From a virus (taxonomy: Duplodnaviria > Caudoviricetes), in the IMG/VR virus record IMGVR_UViG_3300042922_000610, positions 1-60,783 of that record: DNA of 60,783 nt. One strand, 5' to 3'. Shown here one piece after another: positions 101 through 49,906 of this stretch. The position numbers and the translations under genes are program-made. Every line of letters starts with the position of its first letter. Position 1 is the first letter of the stretch. The notes under the pieces were generated by a model, which saw only the letters and a list, made by a program, of their open reading frames with translations, was not told where the DNA came from and made no database searches.

Positions 101-937
101 ATGAAATTTACAAAACAGCGAGGCGGCGCACCGGTCGCCGCGAACGATAACAGCGAGTTTCGTTTCTACGTTTATGCGTGGCTCCATCCAGACGGCCGTC
201 CCTTCTATGTCGGGAAAGGCAGTGGTCGGCGCGACACGCAACCTAAAAGCGGCAACCGTATCTTCAATGGCACTGTCGCGAAAATACGCAAAGAAGGCGG
301 CGAGCCTACAGTTGTTCGCTGGCATGAGGGACTGCGCGAGGTGGATGCTCACCGCCTGGAGGTGGCGTATATCAAACTATTTGGCCGGAGGAACAACAGT
401 ACGGGTGTATTGGCAAATCTTACGGACGGCGGTGAGGGATCGAGCGGAGCTGTTGTTGGAAGTGAAACGCGAGCCAAGATGAGTTCCGCCCAACTGGGCC
501 GGACGCACAGCCCAGAAACTCGCGCCAAGATCGGTGAGGCGAATAGCCGTAGGACGCAAACCCCAGAGACTAGGGCAAAGATCAGCGAAGCGAGACGCGG
601 ATAGAGGAATTCTAATTTTGGCAAGCCGATTAGTCCGGAACTTCGCTTGAGGATTATTGAGTCGAATCGGACTAGGGAAGTTAGCGAGGAAACGCGAGCC
701 AAGATTAGCGAAGCTAACCGCATGGCACCGCCTAGAAACGAGTTCAAGGGCGTTCGAGCGTTCCACAATAAATGGCGCGCATCCGTTACTGTCGACGGAG
801 AGCACCGCCACTTAGGCACCTACTCTACGCCTGAAGAAGCCGCTCGCGCCTATGACAGGGCAGCCATTGAGGCATGGGGGCTCGGCAATTGCTACCTGAA
901 TTTCGGCATGACCGAAGTTAACGCCAGCCGCGCATAA
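101..937 (+). pseudogene. GIY-YIG-like homing endonuclease with NUMOD3 repeats and C-terminal AP2 domain, interrupted by one in-frame TAG (602-604)
   Basis: FYVY..PFYVGKG..R motif, repeated (S/P)ETRAK(I/M)S, LGTYSTPEEAARAYD; ORFs 68-604 and 647-937 share a frame: ARRG*RNSNFGKP. Confidence 0.8.
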
Positions 938-948
938 CGTGGCGAACC

Positions 949-1188
949 TTAATCGGTTGCGGGCCTTTTTTTATTGCTCGCTTTCGGGCGTGGCGGATTG
1001 TCGTATATTTTTTTGAACCTTGGACGCGGCTCTTTCGGGGCTGGCGTCACCTCCTCCAGACATTTTTCGTGCAGCGTGACTGGATATTCGTAGCCGCGAA
1101 TCCAGATGGTCACGAAGCCATTCGTACCGATGCGCGACACCTCACCCTCGACTTTGACGCGGTCGCCCTTCGCAATCTTCCTCGGCAT
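949..1188 (-). CDS. Small hypothetical protein (KOW/SH3-like)
   Basis: GGAGGAGG RBS upstream; KGDRVKVEGEV. Confidence 0.7.
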   Translation of the reverse strand: MPRKIAKGDRVKVEGEVSRIGTNGFVTIWIRGYEYPVTLHEKCLEEVTPAPKEPRPRFKKIYDNPPRPKASNKKRPATD

Positions 1189-1229
1189 GTTCCTCCTCCG
1201 TTTTCACGACTATAACGCACGAGCCTATT

Positions 1230-1244
1230 GTTCTTGATTTGTTC
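1230..1244. promoter_or_regulatory. Alphaproteobacterial LexA (SOS) box
   Basis: GTTC-TTGATTT-GTTC = GTTC-N7-GTTC, between divergent genes. Confidence 0.75.
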
Positions 1245-1263
1245 ATGCAATAATTAGCCTATC

Positions 1264-1530: not shown

Positions 1531-1545
1531 CGTCGATAATAAACC

Positions 1546-1574
1546 TTGACAAATTTGTAGAACTGACATAAGGT
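1546..1574 (+). promoter_or_regulatory. Promoter with ACAAATTTGT palindrome
   Basis: TTGACA-17-TAAGGT. Confidence 0.7.
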
Positions 1575-4368: not shown

Positions 4369-4371
4369 GGG

Positions 4372-4737
4372 ATGGTAAGACACGGTGAAGCACCATTTCT
4401 GGAATGCAGCAGCAGAGGCGACCGACGGTTCTCCGCATTCTACGCACGCATACGCTCGCGTGAAAACAGGAGCATTGAAGACATCTATCAGGCGGCCAAG
4501 GTCTTCGAGGACGGCAAAACCGGCCTTGACTGGCTATCCGCAAAAGGCAAGCGGGCCGTGAACATGGACGAGGTGCGGGCTCTGTATTCGCGCCTTTGGG
4601 ATGAGTACATCGGCGAAAATCCTGCGCTTCTCAGCGTCATTCGGGCCGCATCCGGCCTCTCCGATGTGTTCGGTCAGGCAGGCAATGCGTGCCAAGCGAC
4701 TGAGCTTTGGCGGATTCGAAATATGGAGCAAGCATGA
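4372..4737 (+). CDS. NADAR-like protein (resembles DarT1-associated NADAR antitoxins)
   Basis: LECSS..FSAFY..SIEDIYQAAKVFE motif. Confidence 0.55.
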   Translation: MVRHGEAPFLECSSRGDRRFSAFYARIRSRENRSIEDIYQAAKVFEDGKTGLDWLSAKGKRAVNMDEVRALYSRLWDEYIGENPALLSVIRAASGLSDVFGQAGNACQATELWRIRNMEQA

Positions 4738-6005
4738 CCACCCTCACACAAGAAGAACTTCTCCGCAGAGCGGACGCCTACCGCGAGCACGGCAGCTATA
4801 AGAAGGCCGCCAAGGCGCTCGGCATCGGCAAGTCCGCCCTGCAGGAGTGCCTGACCAAGGCGGCTGAGCAAGGCAGGCTCGGAACGGATCCGGTACTTCC
4901 TGGCTATGCCATAAAGAGCATCGCCAGCAAGACGGCCGATGGCGCATGGGTGAAGCAGACGAAGGCGGCGGGCGAAGTGTTCGAAATGCCGGAAGGGTTT
5001 GCCCACAAGCGCATTTCCAACCTTTCGGACGGGCAGGGCCGCACGATCGCGCGCTGGGATATCGTCGAGAAAGACAAGGAGCAGCAACTTGCTGCCATGA
5101 AGGCGGCTGTCGAGGCGTTCAAGGACGAACTGCCGCGCGAGGCACCTGTGGCTCGGATTGCCCGCGCCAACGTCGACCTTCTGAACTTCTATGCCCTGAC
5201 CGATGCGCACTTTGGAGCGCTGTCATGGGCTGAAGAAACGGGAGCGGACTGGGACTTGGGCATCGCCGAAAACTGCGTCACCGACTGGTTCGCTGCCGCC
5301 ATCGACCTTGCTCCCGCGGCATTCACCGGCGTCCTGGCGCAGATGGGCGACCTGGCACACTACGACGGCATGGAGAGCAAGACGCCGACGAGCGGCCACA
5401 TCCTTGACGCCGATAGCAGGTTCCAGAAGGTGGTGCGCGTCATTATCCGCACCTTGCGCCGCATCGTCCGCATGATGCTCGAGAAGCACGAGCGCGTGCA
5501 CATTATCATGGCCGACGCTAACCACGATCCGGCGAGCGGGGCCTGGCTGCGCGAAATGTTCGCGGCGTTCTATGAGGATGAGCCGCGCGTGACCGTCGAT
5601 AGCTCGGCCAGCACCTACTACGTTGTCGAGCACGGCAAGACGTCGCTCTTCGTGCATCACGGCCATCGCCGGAATGTCGGCAACGTCGATTCTGTGTTCG
5701 CCGGCAAGTTCCGCGACATCTACGGTCGCACGCAGTTCTCATATGCCCACCTCGGGCACCTTCACAGCGACGAACTTAAAACCACCAACCTCATGAAGGT
5801 GGAGAGGCATGAAACGCTCGCTGCTCCTGACGCCTACGCTGCGAACGGCGGTTGGCTGTCTGGTCGGTCTGCGAAGGTCATCACATATTCGGCGCGCCAC
5901 GGCGAGGTGTCACGCCTGACGCTTTCGCCGCAGATGGTCGATGGCTGGTCTGGCCGGAAGGCTGCGAATGACAACGTGCCGGCGGCTGAGAGGAGGGCAG
6001 CGTGA
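4734..6005 (+). CDS. HTH + calcineurin-like metallophosphoesterase
   Basis: N-terminal AAKALGIGKSAL; TDAHFG, GDLAHYD, ANHD, HHGH, GHLH. Confidence 0.8.
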   Translation: MTTLTQEELLRRADAYREHGSYKKAAKALGIGKSALQECLTKAAEQGRLGTDPVLPGYAIKSIASKTADGAWVKQTKAAGEVFEMPEGFAHKRISNLSDGQGRTIARWDIVEKDKEQQLAAMKAAVEAFKDELPREAPVARIARANVDLLNFYALTDAHFGALSWAEETGADWDLGIAENCVTDWFAAAIDLAPAAFTGVLAQMGDLAHYDGMESKTPTSGHILDADSRFQKVVRVIIRTLRRIVRMMLEKHERVHIIMADANHDPASGAWLREMFAAFYEDEPRVTVDSSASTYYVVEHGKTSLFVHHGHRRNVGNVDSVFAGKFRDIYGRTQFSYAHLGHLHSDELKTTNLMKVERHETLAAPDAYAANGGWLSGRSAKVITYSARHGEVSRLTLSPQMVDGWSGRKAANDNVPAAERRAA

Positions 6006-7706: not shown

Positions 7707-8089
7707 ACCAGTTTTATGTTGGTCAAGAGGTTGTCTGCATCGATGACAAGGTGCCGCTTGAGGGAGGCGCCATCGTCAAGGACGCCGCAATCACCGAGGG
7801 CCAGGTCTATCGCATAAGGTGGGTGGGCATGGCCTCGCACTACGTCTTCGGCGACTATCTCGGCGTGAAGCTTGAAGGCGTCGACAGCAAGTTCGGCGAG
7901 GCGTGGGGCGTGAAAGATGCGCCGTTTGCGGCTCGTCGGTTTCGGCCGCTGGTCAATGATCCAATCGCGATCTTTCGGCAAATCGCCGCGGATCCGCATG
8001 GCTACAAGGTGACTGGGCCGGAAGGGCCGCTGCATCCAGATGGGCCGCTGCCTGACGACGTTCGCGAGAAAGAAGAGGAGAAGGTATGA
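7703..8089 (+). CDS. Hypothetical phage protein
   Basis: FYVGQEVVCIDD...ARRFRPL; coupled. Confidence 0.7.
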   Translation: MNQFYVGQEVVCIDDKVPLEGGAIVKDAAITEGQVYRIRWVGMASHYVFGDYLGVKLEGVDSKFGEAWGVKDAPFAARRFRPLVNDPIAIFRQIAADPHGYKVTGPEGPLHPDGPLPDDVREKEEEKV

Positions 8090-8781
8090 CCGAGCACGAC
8101 ATCCCGGCATGGACGCCGCACGGCGAGCTTACCGCCCTGCCTACCTACACCCCGCCTTCCGAATTGCGCGCGCTCGGAGCGGCAAGCGGGAAGCCCGTAC
8201 ATGTCGGAGTGGACTTTGCTGCCGGTCCTGACCGCACGGTACGCTGGCCAGCCAACGACAACTACCCTCGCCTGGTAGCGCTCACAGGCGCGGCCGGCAG
8301 CGGCAAGTCGACAGCGACTCGCTACCTCGTCGAGCATCACGGCTATACGCTTGTGAAGTTTGCGGGGCCGTTGAAAGATATGTGCCGCGCGCTTGGCCTC
8401 GACGATCGCCAGATTGAAGGCGATCTGAAGGAGGTGCCGTGCGACATCCTGGCGGGGCGCACTCCGCGGCACGCCATGCAGACCCTCGGCACGCAATGGG
8501 GAAGGGACTGCATCGCGGAAGACTTCTGGATCCGCTTATGGAAGATGCGCTCCGTCCAGCACAAGCGCGTCGTCGTCGACGACTGCCGATTCCCCAACGA
8601 GGCCGAGGCCGTCCGCAAGCTCGGCGGCATAATCATCAAGCTCGAGGGCAGGGGCGGGATTGCCGGCAACCACGCCAGCGAGGCGGGATGCGGCCAGCAC
8701 GATGCGGTTGTCGTGAACGACGGGTGTGTCACGGAGCTTTACGCGGCTGTTGAGCAGGAAGTCAGGGGGTGGGCGGCGTGA
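8086..8781 (+). CDS. Deoxynucleoside monophosphate kinase
   Basis: GAAGSGKST P-loop, KFAGPLK, TPRHAMQTLGTQWGR, DCRFPNE, HASE. Confidence 0.9.
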   Translation: MTEHDIPAWTPHGELTALPTYTPPSELRALGAASGKPVHVGVDFAAGPDRTVRWPANDNYPRLVALTGAAGSGKSTATRYLVEHHGYTLVKFAGPLKDMCRALGLDDRQIEGDLKEVPCDILAGRTPRHAMQTLGTQWGRDCIAEDFWIRLWKMRSVQHKRVVVDDCRFPNEAEAVRKLGGIIIKLEGRGGIAGNHASEAGCGQHDAVVVNDGCVTELYAAVEQEVRGWAA

Positions 8782-8951
8782 AGGGCAGCCGCGAGCACAA
8801 GCGATATATGGCGCTCTTGCGTAGCGCTCGGGGGAAGCCCAACGGCGTGGTGGGGTCTTGGGCGATGGATGATCTCAGGCTATTCAAGCTGGAGACAGAC
8901 AAGAAGTGGCGAAAGGTAAAGCGCCGTCCTCGCGATGGCTACGCCGCATAA
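8778..8951 (+). CDS. Small basic hypothetical protein
   Basis: GTGA overlap; last gene of rightward arm. Confidence 0.5.
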   Translation: MKGSREHKRYMALLRSARGKPNGVVGSWAMDDLRLFKLETDKKWRKVKRRPRDGYAA

Positions 8952-10195: not shown

Positions 10196-10426
10196 GAGGG
10201 CTGCGTCGATCAAGTGATCCCAGATGTCGAGAGCGCGGAACCCATCAGCATCCGCATTGCTTGCGGCCTCATTCATGGCGTCGGTAGGTTCGCGCATGGC
10301 TCTAATGATGTCGCGCGCAGTTTCCTCATAATTCTTCCACAACGGCATGTCGGCATAAGTGGCGTTCTTGTCACCATACTCTGCGGCGCACAGCACCTTC
10401 GCCACCCGCTCAATCATCTCGCTCAT
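10187..10426 (-). CDS. Hypothetical phage protein
   Basis: MSEMIERVA...AMREPTDAM..IDAAL motif common in alphaproteobacterial phages. Confidence 0.75.
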   Translation of the reverse strand: MSEMIERVAKVLCAAEYGDKNATYADMPLWKNYEETARDIIRAMREPTDAMNEAASNADADGFRALDIWDHLIDAALKQ

Positions 10427-11577
10427 GCTTCCCTCCTCTTCTCCAAGTCCGTCCTGCGCCCAGTCCCTTCCGCCAGCCTACCTGAACACGCCAGCGGATC
10501 TTCCAGCCACGGCAGTGCGCGCCAGGTATCGGGCACTGGCAGCCTGTTGATTGCCTCGATGAGAGGCGCCTGCGGCACGTGGGTGTAGTGGCGGCTCATG
10601 TCGTCGGCTGCGTGGCCGAGTATCTGATCCTTGATGTGCGGGTGGACGCCAGCCACGACGAGGCCAGTAGAGCATGAGTGGCGGCCCGTATACGGCGCGA
10701 TGTCCTTAATGCCCGACCGTCGGCGAGCGCCGTTGATTGCCGACTTCAAGCCTCCGCCGCCTCGCCCCTCCTCGTCGGTCGCAATCTGCTCGTACGGTTC
10801 GCCACGCGGCGTGCGGAAGAGTCGGGGCTCCTTGTCTAGTCCTGGCCGCTTGAGAAGCGATGCGAAGATCGGCACCAAGAACTCATGCATAGGGATGCCG
10901 CGCGGCTCGCCAGTCTTAGTTTTGTAAAGAGAAATCCACCGCCCAGTAACGTTGACCTCTTCTACCTCAAGAGCAAATAGCTCGATCGGTCGCATGCCGC
11001 TATAGAAGAGCGTAGTCATCAGCATTGCCGGCCCTGGCGACATAGCGGCGATGAATCGTGCCGCATGCTCGTATTCAACCGGGAACGTGCCAGCGCGGCG
11101 CTTTGTGATCCGAACGACATTCGTGCCCTTTGGCTTCCTCGGGCGCGACCATTGGCGAACGTCGGCCCAGCCGTTCTTAACGGCGTGGTTCCAGACAGCC
11201 ACAAACGGCGTGTAGCACTGGCGATTGCGAGTCTCCGGCTGCGCCGTCGGGTACAGCTTGCGGGCCGCGTCGTCGAGATCGTTCTGCTGGATGTCCTTTA
11301 GTGGCGTGTTGTAGAAGTGCCCTAGCAGCCCATCGTCCAGCCCGCCAATGAAGCGAGCGTCGCCGCCAGCCTTCAGGTACGATTCGACTGCCTGCGCGAA
11401 TGTGCGCGTGGCCTTCGGCCCGAAGACGTGGTCGCTTACGAGGCCAGCTTCTTTTTTGACCCTGATTGCTTCCGCGACTTCTTTGTCGTGAGTGCGAGTA
11501 GACTCGCGGACAGCTTGTCCATGGACGGTGCCGGAGATCCACCAGACCTTACCGCGCTTGTAGAGTTTGAGGGGCAT
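10423..11577 (-). CDS. int: Tyrosine integrase
   Basis: SGMRPIE (R), KTK, YTGRHS, ILGH, HY catalytic residues. Confidence 0.95.
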   Translation of the reverse strand: MPLKLYKRGKVWWISGTVHGQAVRESTRTHDKEVAEAIRVKKEAGLVSDHVFGPKATRTFAQAVESYLKAGGDARFIGGLDDGLLGHFYNTPLKDIQQNDLDDAARKLYPTAQPETRNRQCYTPFVAVWNHAVKNGWADVRQWSRPRKPKGTNVVRITKRRAGTFPVEYEHAARFIAAMSPGPAMLMTTLFYSGMRPIELFALEVEEVNVTGRWISLYKTKTGEPRGIPMHEFLVPIFASLLKRPGLDKEPRLFRTPRGEPYEQIATDEEGRGGGGLKSAINGARRRSGIKDIAPYTGRHSCSTGLVVAGVHPHIKDQILGHAADDMSRHYTHVPQAPLIEAINRLPVPDTWRALPWLEDPLACSGRLAEGTGRRTDLEKRREA

Positions 11578-11765
11578 CGAAGAACGTCCTTTATGGCTTC
11601 AATGTCTGTTTCGGTGAAGAGAATGTCGCGGCCGCGCACCATGCACAAGCCGTGCTGCTTGGCGATCTTGGCGACGCCTCTATTCGTGAGCCGCAAATGG
11701 TCGGCGGCCTCCGACAGCGTGTAGATGCTGCCCGAGGGCTTGTTATCGTTGGCGGGCTGCTTCAC
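11436..11765 (-). CDS. xis: Excisionase / HTH_17-like, overlapping int start
   Basis: YTLSEAADHLRL..ILFTETDIEAI; GTG start coupled to upstream gene. Confidence 0.75.
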   Translation of the reverse strand: MKQPANDNKPSGSIYTLSEAADHLRLTNRGVAKIAKQHGLCMVRGRDILFTETDIEAIKDVLRCPSNSTSAVRSGGSPAPSMDKLSASLLALTTKKSRKQSGSKKKLAS

Positions 11766-11950
11766 GGCGTCGCCCCCTTCGGATAGCACTTGCCGTGAAG
11801 GTAGGCGTTGTGAGGCTCGTCGACACCGTAGTGCATCTCGCGCAGTTCCTTGTTGGCTGCCTCGCAGGCTTCCTTGGTGTCGAACTCCGCAGAAACTGAG
11901 AAAGAACCAAACATCTTTGATATGAGGGCGAAAACGAGAACGTACTTCAT
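11762..11950 (-). CDS. Small exported hypothetical protein
   Basis: MKYVLVF..EFDTKEACEAA..C. Confidence 0.65.
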   Translation of the reverse strand: MKYVLVFALISKMFGSFSVSAEFDTKEACEAANKELREMHYGVDEPHNAYLHGKCYPKGATP

Positions 11951-12147
11951 GCGGCGGCCTCGTTAGTTGCCGCCTCAAGTTCCTTGCGGTGCCCGTCTGC
12001 TTGCTCGAACGTATCAAAGGCGCCGGAGCAAAGGCGCGTACGCATGCCCTCGCTGGTGACGAACGTTTCAATAAGACGATACGGCCGCAGCACATCTTCC
12101 GGAGCAACTATCTTCATGACTTGTATGAAGGAGGTCTTTGCCATCAC
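11947..12147 (-). CDS. Hypothetical protein
   Basis: Coupled junctions. Confidence 0.6.
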   Translation of the reverse strand: MMAKTSFIQVMKIVAPEDVLRPYRLIETFVTSEGMRTRLCSGAFDTFEQADGHRKELEAATNEAAA

Positions 12148-12344
12148 GCCGCCTCCCTCTCGCGCCCATAGCCCAGCAGCTCGAGCTTATCGGCAATCCG
12201 CCGCAGGTTGTCGGCCACAGCCTGCCGGCGATAGCCCTTGTTGTCATTTGCGGCCGCTACCTGGCGCAGCGAGGCAGGGCAAAGGTTGTCGGCGATCGCA
12301 CGCTCGACGGTGAGGAGGGGGGTGTTATTGTTTGCGTGTCTCAT
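12144..12344 (-). CDS. Hypothetical protein
   Basis: CCACCACAGAAGGAGAC RBS; ANNN and ANDN motifs. Confidence 0.7.
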   Translation of the reverse strand: MRHANNNTPLLTVERAIADNLCPASLRQVAAANDNKGYRRQAVADNLRRIADKLELLGYGREREAA

Positions 12345-34372: not shown

Positions 34373-34549
34373 ATGGAGACCTACTACATCGTCATCGATG
34401 AAGAACTGGATGAAGTAGTGGCGATGAATTGGCACGTTGAGCTCTACGGAAGAAAATCCGACGCCAGGAGCCGGGTGAAAGAGGTACTGGACAGAATCTC
34501 TAAGAAGTGCGGCGGAATGGAGCTTAGAAACGATGGGGAGCCTGCATGA
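34373..34549 (+). CDS. Small hypothetical protein
   Basis: RBS; ATGA coupling. Confidence 0.5.
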   Translation: METYYIVIDEELDEVVAMNWHVELYGRKSDARSRVKEVLDRISKKCGGMELRNDGEPA

Positions 34550-35976: not shown

Positions 35977-36612
35977 ATGGGAAAAGCGAATGATTTAACG
36001 GGCGCAAGATTCGGGCGTCTTCTTGTCGTTGGCAAATCGGCCCACAAAGACGGCAAGAACACGCACTGGGATTATGTTTGCGACTGTGGAAATACAGGCC
36101 ACGCGCATACGGCCCGCCTCAACGGCGGGCAGCGCAGTTGTGGTTGCCACACAAAAGAAGCGATTGGTCCGCGCTCAATAACCCACGGGCAGACGGTCGG
36201 GTGGAAGTGGACGACAACATACCGATGCTACCGCGCAATGATCGCAAGGTGCATCTACCCAAGCCAAATGTACTACGACGATTACGGCGGTCGTGGCATT
36301 AAGGTTTGCGACAGGTGGATGCATGGCGAAAATGGTATGTCTGGATACGAATGCTTTGTTGCTGATATGGGCGAGAAGCCGCGCGGCTTAACCATCGACC
36401 GCAAGAACAATGACGGCAACTACGAGCCAGGCAATTGCCGATGGGCCACGCAGTCTGAGCAGATGTTAAACACCCGCGCTTCCAAGGTTACGCCGGAGAT
36501 GGCCGATCAAATACGGCTTGCATATAAAATCGGTGAAACGCAGATCAGGATTGCGCTTAGGTTTGGGCTTTCGCAATCTCATGTCTCAACCGTCATCAAG
36601 CAGGCAGCCTGA
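35977..36612 (+). CDS. HNH homing endonuclease
   Basis: DLTG.RFGRL, CDCG, SCGC, YGGRGIKVC, IDR.NNDGNYEPGNCRWAT. Confidence 0.9.
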   Translation: MGKANDLTGARFGRLLVVGKSAHKDGKNTHWDYVCDCGNTGHAHTARLNGGQRSCGCHTKEAIGPRSITHGQTVGWKWTTTYRCYRAMIARCIYPSQMYYDDYGGRGIKVCDRWMHGENGMSGYECFVADMGEKPRGLTIDRKNNDGNYEPGNCRWATQSEQMLNTRASKVTPEMADQIRLAYKIGETQIRIALRFGLSQSHVSTVIKQAA

Positions 36613-36999: not shown

Positions 37000-37791
37000 T
37001 TGTCCATGATGGATGATTTATTTGGATGCCCGCCTAGGGCAGCGAATGACAATGTTCGGGATCGCTCTGTCGAGAAGCCACGCGACAGGAGGGCTGAACA
37101 CGAACGGCGTCTAGCGCGATCGCCTGACCGTGTTTGCGAACACTGCGGGGCCGTATTCAAGAAGGTGCAAAAGGACAAGCTGCCTCCGCGATACTGCTCC
37201 AAGGTATGCAGTGGCAGCGCCGGTATGGCCGCTATCCATGCGGGAAGGCTGCCTTGTCCAGTTTCATATTCGGTGTACAGACCGCTGTGCGGGTGTTGCG
37301 GTGTGCGCTTTACCGCATCGAATAGATTGGCACGGTTGTGTTCTGATGAGTGTAGAGCGGAAGACGCGCGCGTAAAGGCTCGCAAGTACGCTGAAGCAAA
37401 CGATAACCGGGACAGATCGGCAAGGCCATGCGCAGAGTGCGGCGACCCATTCATTCCAGAATACGGGAACAAGAAGAGCAAATACTGCTCAGATAACTGC
37501 ATGAAGCGGGCCACTCGACGCGTATCAAAGGGCTTGCGTAAAGCAAGGATGAGGGCAACGATAGTTGAGCCTGTCAATCCCATTGCTGTCTTCGACCGTG
37601 ATGGATGGATGTGCCAACTGTGCGGCGTTGAGACGCCAAGAGAATTGCGCGGAACTTACGACAATGCTGCGCCCGAACTGGACCATGTCGTGCCCCTGTC
37701 AAAGGGTGGCGCTCATACATACGACAACACTCAGTGCTCTTGTCGCGAGTGCAATCAGCGTAAGAGCGACATCATGCCAATGGTCGCGTGA
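37000..37791 (+). CDS. HNH endonuclease with three Zn-finger repeats
   Basis: CxxCG..F..(Y/L)CS..C x3; RDGW.CQLCG..LDHVVPLSKGG..N..C..CN..K. Confidence 0.85.
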   Translation: MSMMDDLFGCPPRAANDNVRDRSVEKPRDRRAEHERRLARSPDRVCEHCGAVFKKVQKDKLPPRYCSKVCSGSAGMAAIHAGRLPCPVSYSVYRPLCGCCGVRFTASNRLARLCSDECRAEDARVKARKYAEANDNRDRSARPCAECGDPFIPEYGNKKSKYCSDNCMKRATRRVSKGLRKARMRATIVEPVNPIAVFDRDGWMCQLCGVETPRELRGTYDNAAPELDHVVPLSKGGAHTYDNTQCSCRECNQRKSDIMPMVA

Positions 37792-37905: not shown

Positions 37906-38289
37906 ATGGCTAGGCCAAGGACGCCGAAGGCCAAGGCCGAAATCACCGGCCACGCCAGCAAGCAGAAAACAAAGTTTGAGGCCCGCAACGAGCCCACTGT
38001 CGCCGACAGCGTCGGGGAGCCGTTCGACTGGCTAAATGAGTTCGCGCAGAAGGCATGGCGCGAGATTGCATCTGAGGTGCCCTGGCTCAATTCGAGCCAC
38101 CGAGGCCATCTGGCGATTGCCGCAAATATCCGCGGCCGGATGATGAAGGGTGAAGACGTTGGCGTGCAAGCCATGAACCTTCTGCGCCAGTGCTACGGTC
38201 AAATGGGCGCGACGCCGGCTGATGCCAGCAAGGCTGGAGCTAAACCGGATGGCGAAAGCAAAGACCCCGCAGACGAGTTCTTCGACTAG
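37906..38289 (+). CDS. terS: Terminase small subunit
   Basis: MARPRTP..P.WL..W..MGATPADASK; position. Confidence 0.8.
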   Translation: MARPRTPKAKAEITGHASKQKTKFEARNEPTVADSVGEPFDWLNEFAQKAWREIASEVPWLNSSHRGHLAIAANIRGRMMKGEDVGVQAMNLLRQCYGQMGATPADASKAGAKPDGESKDPADEFFD

Positions 38290-40198
38290 CGTTCCGGCGC
38301 ATTTTAATCCGACGTATCCGACTGGCCCGGTTGATGAATACGCCGAGGCCGTCCTAAGCGGCACTATCATCGCTGGCCCGCACGTGCGGAACGCATGCCG
38401 ACGTCATCGGGACGATCGCAAGAACGGTCCTGCTCGCGGCATTCACTGGGATCCGGAGGCTGCTGATCGCGTCTTGCGGTTCTTTCCTGCTGTGCTTCGC
38501 CTGAACGGCGGCCAGTTCGAAGGGCGGCCGTTCCATCCGCACATTTCGCAGCAGTTCAAGATTGGCTCCATCTTTGGATGGAAGCGCGTTGAGTCTGACG
38601 GCGCAATCCTGCGCCGCTTCCGTCGCGCTTACATCGAGGAAGGGAAGGGCAACGGCAAGTCGCCTCTGGCGGCCGGCATCGGGCACTACTGCCTCACGGC
38701 TGACGGGGAGGCGGCGGCTGAAATCTATGCTGCGGCGGCCAACAAGGATCAGGCTTTCGTTCTATTTCGCGACGCTGTCGCGATGTACGAGCAGTCGCCT
38801 GCGCTTAAGTCCAAGCTGACGCCATCGGGCGGCAACCCTATCTGGAACCTATCGTATCTGAAGAAGCGATCGTTCTTTCGGCCGATCTCGCGCGAAGGCG
38901 CCCACTCTGGGCCACGTCCATACATCGCACTTTGCGACGAAATCCACGAGCATCCCGATGGCAAGGTCATCGAAATGCTCGAGCGCGGCTTCAAGTTTCG
39001 TCGCCAGCCGCTGCTGTTCATGATTACGAACTCGGGCAGCGATCGGAATTCGATTTGCTGGGACGAGCACCAGCACGCGGTGAAGGTTGCTGCGGGCACG
39101 CAGACGCCCGACGACGATTTCACTTATGTCGGCGAGGTTATCGACGACACCACGTTTTCGTATGTCTGCGCGCTCGACAAGGACGACGATCCGTTCACGG
39201 ATCCGACCTGCTGGCAGAAGGCAAACCCGCTCTTCGGTGTGACGCTGAAGCACGATTACCTTGCTGGCGTCGTCAACCAGGCGAAGGATATCCCGTCTAA
39301 GCGTAACGGAATTCTGCGGCTGCACTTCTGCGTCTGGACGGAGGCCGACACGGCGTGGATTCCTCGGCCCATCCTCGAAAAAGTGATGGTCGACTTCGAC
39401 CCATACGCCGAACACGAAGGCAGGCCAATAACTGCGGCTGGCCTCGATTTGTCGGGCGCGAAGGATTTGACGGCTGCGGCCTTCATTGTTGAGACCGGAA
39501 CCAAGCGCGTGCAGCGCGAGGACGGTACCGAGGCGGACCTGCCAACCTACGATCTATGGATTGAGGCTTGGACGCCGAGAGAGACGATGGATGAGCGGTC
39601 CAAACAGGACCACGTGCCCTATCGCCTCTGGAATGAGACGCATCACCCCGGCACCACATGGCCCTACATCCATGCTCCGGACGGAAAGCGAGTTCGCTAC
39701 GACCATGTTGCTGCACTTTTCGCACGCATCAATACCGAGCATGGTATTGGCGTTTTGGCTTACGATAACTACGCCTTCGACAAGTTCGCGGAAGAGCTCG
39801 ACGCCTATGGCGTGGATATACCGACCGTAAGCCACCCGCAGGGCGGCAAGAAACGCGCGCAGCCATCGGCTGAGAAGGTTGCGGCCGCAGAGGCGGCGGG
39901 CCTGCCGAAGCCGCTAGGGCTTTGGATGCCTGGCAGCGTTTCGGCGCTTGAAACGCTCATCCTTGAGGAGCGCATCAGGCTGCGCAGATCTCCGGTTCTG
40001 CTTGGCGCCTTGATGGGTGTGGCGATCGAAACCGACCCACTTATGGGCAACCAGTGGTTCAGCAAGAAGAAGTCGACGGTTCGCATCGACCCTGCGGTTG
40101 CTGCCGCGATGGCGGTTGGCGCTGCGGTTGATGGGACGCCTGAGCCTGTCTTTGTGGCGAGTCCATGGGACGACCCGGAATTTTCTCTAGCGGCATAG
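38249..40198 (+). CDS. terL: Terminase large subunit
   Basis: GKGNGKS, DEIHE, W.KANP, GLDLS..DLTA, RIDPAVA. Confidence 0.95.
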   Translation: MAKAKTPQTSSSTSVPAHFNPTYPTGPVDEYAEAVLSGTIIAGPHVRNACRRHRDDRKNGPARGIHWDPEAADRVLRFFPAVLRLNGGQFEGRPFHPHISQQFKIGSIFGWKRVESDGAILRRFRRAYIEEGKGNGKSPLAAGIGHYCLTADGEAAAEIYAAAANKDQAFVLFRDAVAMYEQSPALKSKLTPSGGNPIWNLSYLKKRSFFRPISREGAHSGPRPYIALCDEIHEHPDGKVIEMLERGFKFRRQPLLFMITNSGSDRNSICWDEHQHAVKVAAGTQTPDDDFTYVGEVIDDTTFSYVCALDKDDDPFTDPTCWQKANPLFGVTLKHDYLAGVVNQAKDIPSKRNGILRLHFCVWTEADTAWIPRPILEKVMVDFDPYAEHEGRPITAAGLDLSGAKDLTAAAFIVETGTKRVQREDGTEADLPTYDLWIEAWTPRETMDERSKQDHVPYRLWNETHHPGTTWPYIHAPDGKRVRYDHVAALFARINTEHGIGVLAYDNYAFDKFAEELDAYGVDIPTVSHPQGGKKRAQPSAEKVAAAEAAGLPKPLGLWMPGSVSALETLILEERIRLRRSPVLLGALMGVAIETDPLMGNQWFSKKKSTVRIDPAVAAAMAVGAAVDGTPEPVFVASPWDDPEFSLAA

Positions 40199-40206: not shown

Positions 40207-41493
40207 ATGAAGTGGCCATTTAGCCGCCAAACGGCGAACAATGCGTCGGAATCGCGCGCAAGTCCGGAAACCGAGACAGTTCCGGTAAGCGCCGAGAATT
40301 TCCTCGCATTCTTCGGTGTTCAGTCTGGCAATCTGCCTAATGTGACGATCGACACGGCGCTGAATGTGCCGGCGGTTTTCGCTGCCGTCGCATTCTTGTC
40401 GCGCACGTTGGCTGCCCTCCCGCGTCATGCCTATCGGGACACGAAGGGCGGCGCAAAACGCGTCGGCGGTAAGCTCGAGACGGTCGTCAACATCGCCCCG
40501 AACGACATTATGGGGTCGTTCAAGTTCTGGCAGTACTTCTGGCAGCAGGTGTTTTCCGGCGGGCGCGGTCTGGCCTGGATTGAGCGGACGCCGCAGGGCA
40601 TTGACGCGCTGTGGCCGATGGATCCATCCAAGACAAACATCAAGCGCGTCGGCTTCACCGTCACTTATGAGTTTGACGGCAAGACCTACCCGGCTCGCGA
40701 TGTCATTGACGTCCCGTTCATGCTGCAGACCGACGGCCTGAAGCACTACGGGCCGATCACGAAGGCAGCCAAGGCTATTCAGCTTGCGTTGGCAATGAAC
40801 GACTACGGCAGCAATTTCTTTGCAGGCGGCGGCGTTCCACCGCTTGCGCTTAAAGGTCCGCTGCCGACTGGCGCTGAGGCCATGAAGCGCGCGCAGGCGG
40901 ACATTAAGCGCTCCGTCGACGCCGCGAAGAACGCAAACGAGCCGATCTTCCCTATACCGCCTGGCTATGATCTCGACCCGGTAGGGCTGGATCCTGCCAA
41001 GGGGCAGATGATCGAGGCTCGCCGCTTCCAAGTCGAAGAAATCGCGCGAGTTTGGCAGTTGCCTCCTGTGTTCCTGCAGGATCTCAGCCGCGCGACGTTC
41101 AGCAACGTAGAGCAGCAAGACCTGCACCTCGTCAAGCACCTTATCGGCCAGTGGGCCAAGGCGCTTGAGGATGAAATGAATCTAAAGATGTTCGGCCGCG
41201 GCAATAGCGGCCGCTACATCGAGCATGCGTTGGATGGGCTCATGCGAGGCGACTTCAAGAGCCGCATTGAAGGCATCGCGAGGGCGATTCAGACTGCGCA
41301 GATGACGCCGAATGAGGCGCGCGCACTCGAGAACCGACCGGCAATGCCGAACGGCAACGATCTGCTTGTGCAAGGGGCTACCGTGCCCCTTGGCTCGCAG
41401 CCGACGAATGCGGTGCAAGGTGGATCTTCATCAGCGGATGAAGAGCCTCTGACCGCCAACGACAATCAAGAAGACGAGGCGGAAGCCGCATGA
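40207..41493 (+). CDS. Portal protein (HK97 family)
   Basis: FFAGG..P, R.FQVEEIAR.W..PP, TPNEARALEN. Confidence 0.95.
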   Translation: MKWPFSRQTANNASESRASPETETVPVSAENFLAFFGVQSGNLPNVTIDTALNVPAVFAAVAFLSRTLAALPRHAYRDTKGGAKRVGGKLETVVNIAPNDIMGSFKFWQYFWQQVFSGGRGLAWIERTPQGIDALWPMDPSKTNIKRVGFTVTYEFDGKTYPARDVIDVPFMLQTDGLKHYGPITKAAKAIQLALAMNDYGSNFFAGGGVPPLALKGPLPTGAEAMKRAQADIKRSVDAAKNANEPIFPIPPGYDLDPVGLDPAKGQMIEARRFQVEEIARVWQLPPVFLQDLSRATFSNVEQQDLHLVKHLIGQWAKALEDEMNLKMFGRGNSGRYIEHALDGLMRGDFKSRIEGIARAIQTAQMTPNEARALENRPAMPNGNDLLVQGATVPLGSQPTNAVQGGSSSADEEPLTANDNQEDEAEAA

Positions 41494-42209: not shown

Positions 42210-43475
42210 ATGTCCCTTACCGACCTGCAGGAGAAGCGCGGCCGTCTTATGACGCAGGCCCGCGAAGCCCTGAACGAAATCACCGCCAACACCGACGAAG
42301 CCCGCTCCGCCGAACTCGATGCTCGCCACGACGCAATCATGGCCGACTTCGACAAGATCGAGAAGCAGATTGAGCGCGAAGAGCGTCAGGCTGCCATCGA
42401 GGCTCGCTTTGCCGAGCGCCAGAAGGAAAAGCGCCCGGTTGCCGACTCTGAGGCCCGCGGCCAGGACGTCGGCGAGAAGAAGGAATATCGTGAGGTATTC
42501 TACAAGTTCCTCGCCAGCGGCGCAGACCTCGGCGAGCTCGAAGCTGAAGAACGCGCCGTCCTGAAGGCTGGCGTTCAGTCTGCCAAGGAATTCCGCATGC
42601 AGACGACCGGCACGAATACTGCCGGCGGATACACGGTTCCGGTTGAGCTCGCCGACTTCATTGTGAAGTCGATGAAGGACTGGGGGCCCATGTACAATGA
42701 AGACATCGCTACCGTCATCTCGACGAGCTCCGGCAACATCATCAACATCCCGACCGTTGATGACACGGCCGTAACTGCCGTCGCGCACACCGAAGGCACT
42801 GCTCTTACTGACGATGGTGGCAAGGACGCGACTTTCGGCCAGAAGCAGCTTGGCGCTTACGTCTACGACACCGAGTTCGTCAAGTTCTCGATGGAGCTGG
42901 CTCAGGATTCCATCTTCAACATGGAGTCGCTGCTCGGAGCACTTCTCGGTGAACGTCTCGGCCGCATTGCCAACAACCAGCTGACGGTCGGCGACGGCAC
43001 TGGCGACCCGAACGGCGTCGTTACCGCTTCCTCGCTCGGCAAGACTGCAGCCGCTGCCGCTGCTCTGGCATCCGACGAGCTCATTGACCTGCTGCACTCG
43101 GTCAACGCGGCTTACCGCCGTTCGCCGAAGGCTCGCTGGATGTTCGCTGACACCACGCTCGCGGCTATCCGCAAGCTGAAGGACGGTCAGAACAACTACC
43201 TCTGGCAGATGGGCAACGTTCAGACGGGCGAACCCGGCACGCTGCTCGGCTATCGCTACGAGATCAACGACGACGTTCCGGCGATCGCTGCTTCGGCTAA
43301 GCCGGTTATCTTCGGCGATTTCTCGAAGTACTTCGTTCGCAAGGTTGGCTCGCCGGTCATCGGCGTTCTGCGTGAGCGCTTCTGGCCGGATCTCGGAATT
43401 GCCGGCCTCATCCGCTTCGACGGCGAGCTCGGCGACACCGCGGCGGTGAAGCACCTTGTAATGGCTGCTGCCTAA
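42210..43475 (+). CDS. Major capsid protein (HK97 fold)
   Basis: Coiled-coil delta domain, GGYTVP, G.G.G.PNG, LKDGQNNYLW, FGDFS.Y, RFDG. Confidence 0.95.
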   Translation: MSLTDLQEKRGRLMTQAREALNEITANTDEARSAELDARHDAIMADFDKIEKQIEREERQAAIEARFAERQKEKRPVADSEARGQDVGEKKEYREVFYKFLASGADLGELEAEERAVLKAGVQSAKEFRMQTTGTNTAGGYTVPVELADFIVKSMKDWGPMYNEDIATVISTSSGNIINIPTVDDTAVTAVAHTEGTALTDDGGKDATFGQKQLGAYVYDTEFVKFSMELAQDSIFNMESLLGALLGERLGRIANNQLTVGDGTGDPNGVVTASSLGKTAAAAAALASDELIDLLHSVNAAYRRSPKARWMFADTTLAAIRKLKDGQNNYLWQMGNVQTGEPGTLLGYRYEINDDVPAIAASAKPVIFGDFSKYFVRKVGSPVIGVLRERFWPDLGIAGLIRFDGELGDTAAVKHLVMAAA

Positions 43476-46531: not shown

Positions 46532-46534
46532 CGC

Positions 46535-46888: not shown

Positions 46889-47097
46889 ACCCGCTGCCAA
46901 ACGGCATGACGCGCTGGAGCTCATATTACGGCGCCGGAGCGGTTATGGGCTTCACGCCTAGCGATATCGACGACATGACGTTGTGGGAATTCGACTGCTG
47001 TTACGAGGGCTACCAGAAGGCGCACCAGACGGAAGAGCAGGCTCCTCCGCCGATGGCCGACGACCAGTTGGCTGAACTCGGCGTGCAGGGTTTCTAA
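46849..47097 (+). CDS. Tail assembly chaperone extension (T-like) reached by -1 frameshift
   Basis: GGGGGAG at 46849-46855; -1 frame open to 47097 (MGFTP..MTLWEF). Confidence 0.7.
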   Translation, partial: GGARGGDSGGKQLDPLPNGMTRWSSYYGAGAVMGFTPSDIDDMTLWEFDCCYEGYQKAHQTEEQAPPPMADDQLAELGVQGF

Positions 47098-47261
47098 TTT
47101 TCGCCAAGTCGGCGCAGCGTTTCCTTGTTTTGCTCTAGCAAGGCGTTGATCTGAGCATCACGAGAATACTTGGCGTTATATTCCAGCGACGCCAAGTAGC
47201 CTCCCCCGCCGATGATCACGACGCAGGCTGAAGCTATCAGCATTTTGAGCCAAGTATCCAT
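47094..47261 (-). CDS. Small single-TM moron
   Basis: GAGGG RBS; MDTWLKMLIASACVVIIGGGGY. Confidence 0.65.
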   Translation of the reverse strand: MDTWLKMLIASACVVIIGGGGYLASLEYNAKYSRDAQINALLEQNKETLRRLGEN

Positions 47262-47323
47262 GGTTCCCTCTTTTTTGAGCGCACTATCGCAGATTGTGCC
47301 GCTGTTGTCCATAAAGGTGAATA

Positions 47324-49906
47324 ATGGCAGCCAATGACGATACCGCTCGCCTTTTAGTTTCCATCGAGGCGACGCAGGCGCGGTTTGCCAAAGATATGGC
47401 CAGAATTGCGAAGGCGGCGGGAGACACGGCAAGCGGTGTCGAGCGTACCTTCCAAAAAGCCAATGACAATGTCGGCAGGAGTTTTGAGAACGCCGGACGC
47501 AAGGCTACTTCGTCAATGCGCCAGTCAAGCGCGGCCGTCTCCAACCTGTCATTCCAGCTTAACGACATCGCGATGGGACTTGCCTCTGGCACGTCTCCAT
47601 TCACGATCATGGTGCAGCAGGGCAGCCAGGTATCGCAAGTGCTGCAGGGTAGCGGTGGCCTGCTCGGTGCCGTGAAGACGCTCGGGGGCGCCTTCGCGAC
47701 CATGGTCAATCCAGTTTCTCTGGCATCGTTTGCCTTGATTGGCTTGACTGGCGCTGCGGTGCAGTACCTCACGACGCTGGGCTCTGGTGTGCCGGAAGCT
47801 GAGGAGCTTCTGAAGGAGCATGCCAACGTCATCAAGTCGTTCGATGAGGCGTGGGGCGTAGCGGAGAAGGGCGTCAAGGAATATTCAGACGCCGTAAAGC
47901 AAATCGAACTCCAGAAGCTGCGCGACGAATTCGGCAGCCTGCAGGCAGCCATCAAGTCGGCCGGCGATGACTTGGCCGGTGAAATCCTCGGAATCTCAGT
48001 CGATGAGTTTGGCGGCGCGACAAAGTCGGTCGCGGATTTCAATAAAGCGCTTACTCTGCTTGAGCAGGACATTCCCGACTTTCGACAGTTCTCGATTGAG
48101 ATGGGAAAGATCGAGGACATGACCGGCATCCCGAACAATATTCGGGAACTCGCCAAGCAATTGCGCCTGTCAGCGCAGGAGTCGCTGCCGCTTCAAGATG
48201 CCCTAGAGGAAGCCGACAAGCGCCTCAACGTTATCCGCTTGAGCGCAGAGGAAGCAAAAGCCGCATTTGCAGCGCTAACGTCATCTGCGCTTGGAATGGG
48301 CACGGCTGGAGGCGATGCGGTCGGCACGATCGCCGCTAAGGTCAAGAACGATCTTATTCCGGCGATGACGCAGGCCATTCAGCAGGTTGCTGAGTATGCG
48401 AAAAATTTCAGTTCGCTGCAGGAGCAGGTGAATAAGACGCCTCTAGGCCAATTGTCGCCCATCTTCTCTGGCGGCGGACAGTTCCTCAACGAAGACCAGA
48501 ACAACACGTTCCGCGCCGGTGAAGAGCAATACCGCATAGCCGGCGAGAGCGCTGCGGCGCAGATGGTCAAGGGCTTTGAAGGCTTCATCTCTAAAGCGAA
48601 ATGGGACGTTAATGCATTCCGTGCGGGCTTCGGCTCGGATACGGTCACGCGCGCCAACGGCGCCATTGAGAAAGTCACCAAGGACACGGTCGTTTCGCTT
48701 GCCGACGCGCAGCGCGACCTTGAGCGGCGCCTCGTCGAGTTCCAAGCGGGAATTCAGCAGGCGGTCGGCGTTGACACTTGGAACAGCCTGAACGAAGCGC
48801 AGCAAGCCGCGCTTACTTCGATTGCCTATAACTACGGCGAGCTGCCGCAGCGTATCGTTGCAGCGATCGAAAGTGGCGGCGGCGCTGAAGCTGTAGCAAA
48901 CGCGATTGCTGGACTAGGGGGCGACAACGGCGGCATAAACAAGCGCCGGCGCAATGAAGAGGCGCAAGCTTTTCTGTCCGGCACAGGCATCTCCATGAAG
49001 GAAGCCGGGCTGGGCGGCAGCGGGAAAAAGACGCCAGCCGAGTTGTTCCAAGGTGACGTTCAGCAGATCCAGGCGCGTATCGCGGCACTTAATGCAGAGT
49101 TCGAAGCGCAATCTCGCCTCAACCCTCTTGTTACCGACTACGGCTATGCCGTTGAGAAGGCGAGAATAGAGCAGCAATTGCTGGCGGAGGCGCAAAAGGC
49201 TGGACTAGAGGTAACTCCGGAACTTCAGGCGCAAATCTCTGCCCTCGCCGAGAACTACGCCAAGGCATCGTCGGCCAGCGAGCGTCTAAAGGATTCTCAG
49301 CAAAAAGCTGTCGACGCCGCAAAGCAGTTCTCTGGCTTGGGGCAGGAGGTTGTCGGCGGCTTTATCAGTGACTTGCGCAGCGGCGCGTCCGCGGCAGAGG
49401 CGCTTAGTAATGCCCTAAACAAAGTGCTCGACAAGATCATCGACATCGGGCTCGAGAGCCTGTTTTCGGGTGGTCTTTTTGGCGGGGGTGGAGGTGGCGG
49501 CGGCCTTTTGGGCGGTTTTCTCATCCCCGGCATTCTGCATAAGGGGGGCGTTGCGGGCAGCGATGGTTACGGCCACGGCCGTGCCGTTTCTCCTTCGGCT
49601 TTCTCTGGTGCCAAGCGCTATCACACAGGCGGTGTCGCCGGCCTGATGCCAGGCGAGGTGCCGGCTATCCTCCAGCGTGGCGAGGTTGTCCTGCCACGCG
49701 GCACGAAGATGGGCGGCCAGCAGGGCGTTCAGGTTTCTGTTGGCGTTGCCGTCGACGACGAAGGCAAGCTGCAGGCTTACGTCAAGAAGGTAAGCCAGCA
49801 GGAAGTGGCTAGCGCGTCTCCTAAGATCATTTCTGCGGCTAATCAGCAGGCTCCTGCGGCAGTAGCTCAACATCAGCGAACCAAGGGCGGAGCGGAGTGG
49901 CGTTAA
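47324..49906 (+). CDS. Tape measure protein with internal GH24-like lysozyme domain
   Basis: QLNDI..QQG.Q; GFEGF..WD..GFG..LTSIAYNYG..RRRNEE; H.GG..GEVPAILQRGE. Confidence 0.92.
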   Translation: MAANDDTARLLVSIEATQARFAKDMARIAKAAGDTASGVERTFQKANDNVGRSFENAGRKATSSMRQSSAAVSNLSFQLNDIAMGLASGTSPFTIMVQQGSQVSQVLQGSGGLLGAVKTLGGAFATMVNPVSLASFALIGLTGAAVQYLTTLGSGVPEAEELLKEHANVIKSFDEAWGVAEKGVKEYSDAVKQIELQKLRDEFGSLQAAIKSAGDDLAGEILGISVDEFGGATKSVADFNKALTLLEQDIPDFRQFSIEMGKIEDMTGIPNNIRELAKQLRLSAQESLPLQDALEEADKRLNVIRLSAEEAKAAFAALTSSALGMGTAGGDAVGTIAAKVKNDLIPAMTQAIQQVAEYAKNFSSLQEQVNKTPLGQLSPIFSGGGQFLNEDQNNTFRAGEEQYRIAGESAAAQMVKGFEGFISKAKWDVNAFRAGFGSDTVTRANGAIEKVTKDTVVSLADAQRDLERRLVEFQAGIQQAVGVDTWNSLNEAQQAALTSIAYNYGELPQRIVAAIESGGGAEAVANAIAGLGGDNGGINKRRRNEEAQAFLSGTGISMKEAGLGGSGKKTPAELFQGDVQQIQARIAALNAEFEAQSRLNPLVTDYGYAVEKARIEQQLLAEAQKAGLEVTPELQAQISALAENYAKASSASERLKDSQQKAVDAAKQFSGLGQEVVGGFISDLRSGASAAEALSNALNKVLDKIIDIGLESLFSGGLFGGGGGGGGLLGGFLIPGILHKGGVAGSDGYGHGRAVSPSAFSGAKRYHTGGVAGLMPGEVPAILQRGEVVLPRGTKMGGQQGVQVSVGVAVDDEGKLQAYVKKVSQQEVASASPKIISAANQQAPAAVAQHQRTKGGAEWR

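Follow-up and report, generated by a model that had tools for sequence, protein, structure and literature searches.

The phage genome and its gene calls

The availability of a complete virus record, IMG/VR IMGVR_UViG_3300042922_000610, allowed us to assess how often two short peptide features, the tetrapeptide Ala-Asn-Asp-Asn (ANDN) and a C-terminal Ala-Ala (AA), recur in the proteins of one tailed phage. The window, by which we mean the whole stretch of 60,783 bp, is the complete record and has direct terminal repeats at its ends. The head genes share 89% identity with their counterparts in Rhizobium phage 16-3, and further blocks are common to Rhizobium phage RHph_TM3_3_14B (TM3_3_14B) and Sinorhizobium phage NV1.1.1; these three relatives were used for comparison, and phage AP-16-3, another match, was left out. 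Genes were called with a simple self-trained codon-usage caller, a crude tool that returned 93 genes and 18,084 aa, and two open reading frames (ORFs) were placed by hand, each with a Pfam domain in the frame of the motif, namely an HTH_17 ORF (11436-11765, minus strand) and an HNH ORF (37006-37791). The association between the two features was calculated on a curated set of 94 ORFs, comprising 19 ANDN carriers and 75 others. Annotations were drawn from Pfam, PHROGs and orthologs, and a search for tRNA and tmRNA (transfer-messenger RNA) genes across the window found none.

ANDN recurs in frame in 19 proteins

ANDN was counted at the DNA level with the pattern GCNAAYGAYAAY, using 100 dinucleotide-preserving shuffles as the null and, in other genomes, the reversed pattern as a control. 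We observed 23 copies in 60.8 kb where 0.23 were expected (shuffle mean; maximum 2), in agreement with an earlier reading of the sequence, referred to here as the original prediction, which had listed 23 positions, all of them exact matches, and had estimated well under one copy by chance. Twenty-one copies lie on the plus strand and two on the minus strand, in every case matching the orientation of the gene and falling in an open frame, and all 23 encode ANDN in the sense frame of 19 proteins (20 copies in called genes, 3 in the hand-placed ORFs). No out-of-frame or antisense copy was present among the 23 matches, which answers the proposed check on ANDN outside the coding frame, and the synonymous codon variation that had been noticed is real, all three wobble positions being variable. 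Within the called proteins there are 20 copies where 0.17 would be expected (Poisson p ~1e-34), and ANDN is by far the most over-represented tetrapeptide; the runner-up among unrelated tetrapeptides is GGGG (8 against 0.95 expected, p ~7e-6), and permutations of the letters A, N, D, N occur 0-2 times each. The single-residue variants that had been reported, ANDD (2), ANNN (2), SNDN (2) and ANGN (1), are all present.

With respect to position in the protein, six motifs lie within 14 residues of the N-terminus, nine within 25 residues of the C-terminus and eight are internal, and in seven window tails ANDN stands 6-15 residues before the end. The trait had been described as genome-wide. The excess is real, but it is concentrated in the early DNA-metabolism module (15.7-37.9 kb), which holds 14 of the 20 called copies, and is sparse among the late genes, where there are two.

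The carriers are given here in the order of the map, on the plus strand unless stated otherwise and together with their AA ends where they have one. The first copy (140-151) provides residue 14 of the 167 residues of a NUMOD3-type homing endonuclease (101-604). In the SbcD-like DNA repair exonuclease (4734-6005) the motif is at 5964-5975 (residue 411/423), within the tail AANDNVPAAERRAA, and the AA end at 5997-6002, while the deoxynucleoside monophosphate (dNMP) kinase (8086-8781) bears ANDN at 8251-8262 (residue 56/231) and AA at 8773-8778. The two minus-strand copies belong to the Xis-like (HTH_17 excisionase-like) ORF (11436-11765; motif 11742-11753, residue 5/109) and to a 66-residue protein of unknown function (12144-12344; motif 12240-12251, residue 32/66; AA 12147-12152). 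At the start of the early module, an 84-residue protein of unknown function (15718-15972) carries ANDN at 15862-15873 (residue 49/84), in the segment PPPAANDNKIVKM that is common to all four phages, and an AA end (15964-15969) found in all three orthologs. It is followed by an SSB-like protein with a Pro/Ala-rich tail (18869-19462; motif 19376-19387, residue 170/197) and a Cas4-domain exonuclease (21728-22705; motif 22664-22675, residue 313/325, tail AANDNDPPIAAQAA; AA 22697-22702).

An HNH endonuclease with a helix-turn-helix (HTH) domain (23255-24040) has the motif at 23264-23275 (residue 4/261) and ends in AA (24032-24037). The superfamily-2 helicase (24040-25770) carries two copies, at 25690-25701 (residue 551/576) and 25714-25725 (residue 559/576), both in its low-confidence C-terminal tail. 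A Gam-like/Sipho_Gp157 protein (26277-26810) has ANDN at 26289-26300 (residue 5/177) and AA at 26802-26807. Both DNA methylases are carriers: the N6/N4 enzyme (27099-28421) through 28362-28373 (residue 422/440, tail AANDNQPADLFSAAPLAGAA; AA 28413-28418), and the C5 enzyme (28968-30524) through 28977-28988 (residue 4/518) and 30492-30503 (residue 509/518, tail AANDNTTEETA). In the primase-helicase (31306-33522; AA 33514-33519) the motif (32344-32355, residue 347/738) occupies the linker between Prim-Pol (residues 7-179) and AAA_25 (residues 356-551). The protein at 33766-34290, whose orthologs are annotated VRR-NUC, has ANDN at 33955-33966 (residue 64/174), in a segment missing from the 16-3 and NV1.1.1 orthologs, and AA at 34282-34287, and the phrog_36072 protein of unknown function (34546-35487; AA 35479-35484) has two copies, at 34654-34665 (residue 37/313) and 35443-35454 (residue 300/313, tail AANDNLMAAIKACAA). 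The second HNH endonuclease (37006-37791) also bears two, at 37042-37053 (residue 13/261, N-terminus MMDDLFGCPPRAANDN) and 37396-37407 (residue 131/261). The remaining carriers are the portal protein (40207-41493; motif 41455-41466, residue 417/428, tail ANDNQEDEAEAA; AA 41485-41490) and the tape measure protein (47324-49906; motif 47459-47470, residue 46/860).

Ala-Ala ends are in excess and accompany ANDN

The original prediction had also counted more than 20 ORFs ending in AA, and we find 22 of the 93 called ORFs (22/94 in the curated set) where the internal frequency of the AA dipeptide predicts 1.7 (p ~2e-18). A single C-terminal Ala is found in 38 of 93 ORFs against 11.3 expected. In comparison, only 19 of 433 genes (4.4%) of the Sinorhizobium meliloti replicon pSymB, used as a host background, end in AA (p = 5e-8). 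As for ANDN, the early module is rich in such ends (13/32) and the late module poor (3/28). Furthermore, the two features coincide in the window, since 12 of the 19 ANDN carriers but only 10 of the 75 other proteins end in AA (p = 3e-5).

The AA end is also retained across relatives: among 42 pairs in which the window protein has this end the ortholog shares it in 24, and among 118 pairs in which the window protein lacks it the ortholog ends in AA in 15. The end can be kept although the residues before it differ, as in DIAA, GLAA, ATAA and ELAA at 35-43% identity. We considered whether AA ends might be a by-product of overlapping stop and start codons. This explanation was rejected, as AA ends occur in 12 of 45 genes with an overlap onto the following gene and in 10 of 48 without one. 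Such overlaps do shift the choice of the last Ala codon towards GCA, which is the final codon of 12 of the 22 AA ends, partly through GCATGA stop/start overlaps.

Besides the twelve ANDN carriers given above, AA ends are found in the trypsin-like peptidase (1640-2281; AA 2273-2278), a 60-aa ORF (8769-8951; 8943-8948), a 65-aa ORF on the minus strand (11947-12144; 11950-11955), a 308-aa protein (16247-17173; 17165-17170) that shares the end with three orthologs at 35-43% identity, and a Sak4-like protein (17809-18597; 18589-18594) with the tail ANGNAAAKVAA. Further along the map they occur in a 169-aa protein (22749-23258; 23250-23255), an 83-aa ORF (26029-26280; 26272-26277), a 211-aa protein (35977-36612; 36604-36609) and, by ortholog annotation, the large terminase (38249-40198; 40190-40195, FSLAA) and the major capsid protein (42210-43475; 43467-43472, VMAAA). 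All of the tails that had been quoted beforehand, namely AANDNVPAAERRAA, AANDNDPPIAAQAA, AANDNLMAAIKACAA, ANDNQEDEAEAA, ANGNAAAKVAA, FSLAA and MAAA, were found.

Two of these genes deserve a separate remark. The peptidase (Trypsin_2) has 213 residues and a hydrophobic N-terminus, and its AA end is present in the window and in all three relatives. The capsid gene forms one continuous frame of 421 codons, and in the 16-3 record the capsid is annotated as two products connected through a ribosomal slip close to the 3' end.

The trait belongs to the 16-3-like lineage

The three relatives 16-3, TM3_3_14B and NV1.1.1 contain 18, 18 and 20 ANDN matches in their DNA (controls 0, 0 and 1), and 18/98, 23/85 and 24/100 of their proteins end in AA. 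A query with the helicase against species-representative genomes yielded 29 loci, of which 16, totalling 334 kb, come from cultured Hyphomicrobiales (Shinella, Sinorhizobium, Ensifer, Agrobacterium, Rhizobium, Neorhizobium, Brucella/Ochrobactrum and others). Within these 16 loci 109 matches fall on the gene strand and 3 on the opposite one, and ANDN ranks first among tetrapeptides in 15 of them and second in the remaining one.

The comparison with the host background that had been proposed shows the enrichment to be a property of these phages. The S. meliloti replicon pSymB (1.68 Mb) has 5 DNA matches against 1 for the reversed control, and no ANDN was present in the 433 genes called in 450 kb of it. 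In Sinorhizobium sp. CB7 (7.6 Mb) there are 49 matches, 17 of which fall inside 65 kb of a single contig around a related prophage; one is the tmRNA gene, and the remaining 31 are about what the shuffle rate of the window predicts. A Xanthobacter prophage locus had no ANDN and no AA end (0/33), and the helicase-module loci from outside the Alphaproteobacteria had no ANDN and, with a simple ORF caller, 0-2 AA ends per locus, although a Planctomycetota locus gave 5/22 under the first caller.

It could be that phages of hosts with an ANDN tag generally acquire the motif. However, five of five unrelated alphaproteobacterial phages of such hosts (PBC5, phiM12, phiCbK, 7-7-1 and Brucella Tb) show no enrichment, with 0-1 matches, the same as the controls, and AA ends in the three for which genes were called amount to 8/68, 2/121 and 1/54. 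Thus, the combination of ANDN and AA is a speciality of the 16-3-like lineage and not of the phages of these hosts in general. In coliphages, the analogous tetrapeptide ANDE (from the tag AANDENYALAA) occurs twice in HK97 and not at all in lambda or Mu, with no comparable excess. Sinorhizobium phage PBC5, the first of the unrelated phages and a temperate one, lacks ANDN, and its AA ends (8/68) lie above the 4.4% of the host replicon and far below the proportion in 16-3-like phages.

Selection acts on the peptide

Several observations indicate the level at which the motif is maintained. The Ala, Asn and Asp codons of ANDN vary about as in genome-wide usage (in TM3_3_14B the first Asn is AAT in 10 of 18 copies), and orthologous copies differ at third positions only. 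A single departure was noted in the window and the three relatives taken together, where GCT is depleted as the Ala codon (1/72 against 15.7% genome-wide), possibly as a result of avoidance of the T-A junction in GCT-AAY. In ortholog alignments, which span 28-98% identity but mostly 40-55%, the position of ANDN is kept while the flanks change and carry indels. Individual lineages have also acquired or lost the motif, examples being the VRR-NUC insert, the portal, the homing endonuclease and the primase linker. The helicase tail illustrates how the motif holds its place: in 11 such tails the only invariant residues past the last folded strand are N-D-N, a second N-D-N and a final P-F. An AlphaFold model, itself of only moderate quality (mean pLDDT 58), gives residues 548-576 a predicted local distance difference test (pLDDT) score below 50.

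Pooling 166 motifs, drawn from the four phages and from 14 prophage loci, gives the consensus [AP]-ANDN-x-P, with 97 copies within 25 residues of the C-terminus and Ala as the preceding residue in 77, like in tagged proteins. The copies are short, lie in flexible regions, recur in differently annotated proteins, five of the 19 window carriers having no annotation, and hold their place while the flanks drift. On these alignments ANDN and the AA end behave as short linear peptide motifs under selection.

Both features are the constant parts of the tmRNA tags of related hosts

We used ARAGORN to determine the tag encoded by tmRNA (ssrA) in five genomes that carry related prophages, and obtained ANDNYAEARLAA, ANDNNAKEYALAA, ANDNKAQGYALAA, ANDNYAPVAQAA and ANDNYAPVAVAA. 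The only parts common to the five tags are the initial ANDN and the final AA, and precisely these are in excess in the phage. All five hosts encode the adaptor SspB (PF04386), with a conserved C-terminal tail VV.LD.FRKK and matches to the solved Agrobacterium and Caulobacter SspB structures, and sspB lies within ~260 bp of ssrA in four of the five Hyphomicrobiales genomes and 2.6 kb away in the fifth.

Dozens of unrelated C-termini of the phages and prophages read [AP]ANDN-x(5-15)-AA; those in the window include AANDNVPAAERRAA, AANDNDPPIAAQAA, AANDNLMAAIKACAA, ANDNQEDEAEAA and AANDNQPADLFSAAPLAGAA, and the portal tail ANDNQEDEAEAA is 12 residues long, as in the Sinorhizobium tag. In the pooled set the distance from ANDN to the end peaks at 7-10 residues, compared with 8-9 in native tags, and most tails of this kind end in AA. 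Taken with the presence of SspB in all five hosts and the co-occurrence of the two features in the window, these matches uphold the claim of ssrA-tag mimicry at the level of sequence.

In E. coli, the protein is tethered to ClpX by SspB bound at the tag's start, and ClpX grips the last residues and feeds the chain to ClpP. According to PMC9963277, SspB binds the tag's first seven residues and ClpX the last four, and both can do so simultaneously, and in Caulobacter, as bioRxiv 2022.01.20.477143 describes, deletion of sspB slows the degradation of a protein tagged with AANDNFAEEFAVAA. On the strength of these results, ANDN may be read as a docking site for SspB and AA-COOH as a degron for ClpX. 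A complex prediction of the substrate-binding domain of Sinorhizobium SspB (residues 1-125) with the helicase tail (530-576), run without controls, scored 0.11 against a mark of 0.32 and speaks neither for nor against binding. No phage-encoded SspB was detected at E <= 1. The trypsin-like peptidase of the phage was considered as a reader of the motifs and set aside by inference, given its hydrophobic N-terminus and a 16-3 ortholog described as typically periplasmic.

A probable hard-coded tag for the host SspB and ClpXP

From the motifs, their selection, their lineage specificity, the match with the tag and the co-occurrence of its two parts, we infer SspB binding, ClpXP degradation and a biological purpose. 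We consider it probable, at roughly 60%, that the phage encodes a mimic of the ssrA tag, carried chiefly by early DNA-metabolism proteins, through which host SspB and ClpXP are engaged. ANDN would be the docking site for host SspB and Ala-Ala-COOH the degron for ClpX; where the two stand 5-15 residues apart at a C-terminus they would form a complete built-in tag, and an N-terminal or internal ANDN would act as a tether, allowing a degron that is distant or weak to be engaged. The likely pay-off is that proteins which do harm when leaked by the prophage, or when left over late in infection, would have lifetimes that are short, dependent on the adaptor and saturable. The set that would be tagged in this way comprises nucleases, HNH and homing endonucleases, two methylases, the helicase, the primase, the SSB-like and Gam-like proteins, Xis and the dNMP kinase.

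Several points weigh against this reading. AA-COOH is missing from 7 of the 19 ANDN proteins, and 14 of the 23 motifs lie far from a C-terminus. The association of ANDN with AA is not significant within 16-3, TM3_3_14B or NV1.1.1 singly; it reappears on pooling the prophage loci (AA ends in 43 of 86 ANDN proteins and 82 of 364 others), loci that are related to one another and hence not independent, and it is confounded by the concentration of both features in the early module. Part of it may therefore reflect gene class. A prophage relative in a Xanthobacteraceae metagenome-assembled genome has 15 AA ends among 31 proteins but only one ANDN, suggesting that the two halves of the mimicry can evolve separately. 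The Pro found two residues after ANDN in 66 of the 166 copies is foreign to native tags, and for the portal, large terminase and capsid a degron looks costly. The confinement of the trait to one lineage, as seen from the five unrelated phages, would also fit a reader encoded by that lineage. Finally, the tags and SspB proteins compared are those of carriers of related prophages, and ANDN is the part of the tag that we take to be read by alphaproteobacterial SspB. As a separate observation, the Xanthobacteraceae prophage has the variants SNDD, LNDN and VNDN near C-termini.

A more specific version of hard-coded mimicry is that the whole phage lineage uses the readers of the host trans-translation tag as a proteome-wide, saturable clock, the tags being of the 'use it or lose it' kind. 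In lysogens, leaked nucleases, methylases and recombination proteins would be cleared. Upon induction, tagged proteins would queue at SspB and ClpXP, so that their levels would climb steeply and together. Proteins engaged in their work might be shielded by a partner motif between the adaptor site and the degron, such as the clamp-type DLF in methylase tails, or by assembly, which could bury the degrons at the ends of portal, terminase and capsid. We put this scenario forward tentatively and consider it rather unlikely.

Among the alternatives, the one that survives best keeps the same partners and assigns them another purpose. The induced ANDN and AA proteins might act as a decoy, saturating SspB and ClpXP and thereby stabilising other phage or host substrates or blocking the clearance of tmRNA products. 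The seven ANDN proteins without an AA end would permit adaptor binding without degradation, the helicase combines two ANDN copies with an end that is not a degron, and ClpXP-SspB is reported to be limiting and open to queuing in E. coli (PMC12013620). However, a single abundant protein would suffice as a decoy, which leaves 19 different carriers conserved position by position unneeded, and the coupling to AA-COOH at tag-like spacing indicates real substrates. Such a role for the tagged proteins seems unlikely to us.

Alternatively, ANDN might be a non-proteolytic docking motif for a replication or recombination hub of phage or host (a sliding clamp or SSB-like protein) that gathers DNA enzymes at replication centres, the likeness to ssrA being coincidental. 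No fewer than 14 of the 19 carriers are DNA-acting proteins, the trait tracks the phage lineage rather than the host, a beta clamp is among the phage's own genes, and the same tails bear clamp-like DLF/QLSLF motifs and an end, D[DE][IV]PF, similar to an SSB tip. Yet a chance match of four residues to the start of the tag has a probability of ~1 in 160,000 before the AA end and the spacing are counted, the portal and tape measure proteins carry ANDN as well, and DNA enzymes dominate the early genes of phages under any hypothesis. ANDN itself as a beta-clamp-binding motif was rejected, as it is polar, unlike the clamp motif, and the DLF/QLSLF-type elements stand separately alongside it in methylase tails and at the HNH N-terminus. 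We regard a docking hub as quite improbable.

An oriented DNA or RNA element that translates as ANDN by accident (a Chi- or KOPS-like word, a methylation or other modification site, or an mRNA signal at gene junctions) is extremely improbable and was rejected: copies do follow gene orientation, several are near gene junctions and GCT is depleted, but a frame-blind word would use one frame for all 23 copies with a probability of (1/3)^23 even if strand-specific, wobble positions vary, orthologs keep the amino acids and change the codons, and there is no DNA conservation around the motif. Hardly any weight can be given either to an artefact, whether from composition, a duplicated tail cassette or errors in gene calling, since, crude as the caller is, the DNA count is independent of gene calls, shuffles, reversed patterns and permuted peptides give 0-2, the flanks of the copies are unrelated, and stop positions, hence AA ends, are the same whichever start codon is chosen.

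Relation to known systems

The closest likeness is to the tmRNA tag itself, with which the phage tails share the start (ANDN, often after Ala) and the Ala-Ala-COOH end, as well as the two-part design of adaptor site and protease site outlined in PMC9963277. The phage version differs in that it is written into the gene instead of being appended by trans-translation, leaves the middle of the tag uncopied, and has ANDN also alone, at N-termini and in linkers, with a preference for Pro two residues after it. Among temperate phages, mycobacteriophage BPs encodes host-type C-terminal degradation tags on its repressor and integrase that set protein lifetime (PMC4557955). In BPs there are one or two tagged regulators and an attP within the repressor gene, whereas the window phage has 19 ANDN carriers and 22 AA ends and has copied the adaptor module too. 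Integration-dependent immunity of the BPs type was rejected here, as ...RREA is the ending of the integrase (10423-11577) and ...GKYW that of the likely C repressor (13746-14492). The mimicry of short linear motifs by eukaryotic viruses (PMC10694346) is similar in that a motif in flexible regions copies a host peptide, is gained independently by unrelated proteins and keeps its place as the flanks drift. In our case the host is a bacterium, the virus a phage, and one motif is spread over about one fifth of the proteome.

Natural substrates of ClpXP include lambda O, MuA and the Mu repressor, recognised through terminal signals, and SspB also delivers a client without an ssrA tag, the RseA fragment. 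These are single proteins with idiosyncratic signals, in contrast to the shared copy of a tag in the window phage. A full-text literature search for ANDN or ssrA-tag mimicry across a phage proteome found none, and for AANDN there was no phage paper among the matches listed. What was known before are ssrA-like tags on one or two phage regulators, and motif mimicry on a proteome scale in eukaryotic viruses; as judged from the sequences, what appears new here is the scale of the tagging and the copied adaptor module, the two tag ends being kept across genera.

The presence of both tag ends in about one fifth of the proteins of a rhizobial phage family suggests that the tag-reading protease of the host may handle viral proteins. 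If SspB and ClpXP do read these tags, they would constitute a natural example of virus-wide control of protein lifetime via a host adaptor, and would suggest how temperate phages tolerate many nucleases and methylases. They would also give alphaproteobacterial genetics a ready-made series of natural tags that differ in strength.

Other short elements in the same tails

The helicase ends in ...ELEADVPF (25753-25767), an acidic stretch followed by [IV]PF, like the tails of its relatives. Indeed, 18 of 20 relatives' helicase tails have this ending (one has IQF), for example DDEIPF and DDDVPF, and the product of 28418-28765 ends in ...GEAPF. The C-terminal ending of E. coli SSB is DDDIPF, and given this resemblance the phage helicase may plug into the binding sites for the bacterial SSB tip.

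Motifs of the DLF type were also noted in the window, in the methylase tail (QPADLF, 28374-28391) and at the N-terminus of the second HNH endonuclease (MMDDLF, 37006-37023), and a beta clamp gene lies at 20389-21441. The clamp-binding consensus, which these motifs resemble, is QL[SD]LF. In the methylase tails of many relatives a DLF/QLSLF-type motif stands beside ANDN, as in AANDNSPQLSLFGDAA and PANDNRPADLFSEAA, where it falls between ANDN and the AA end.

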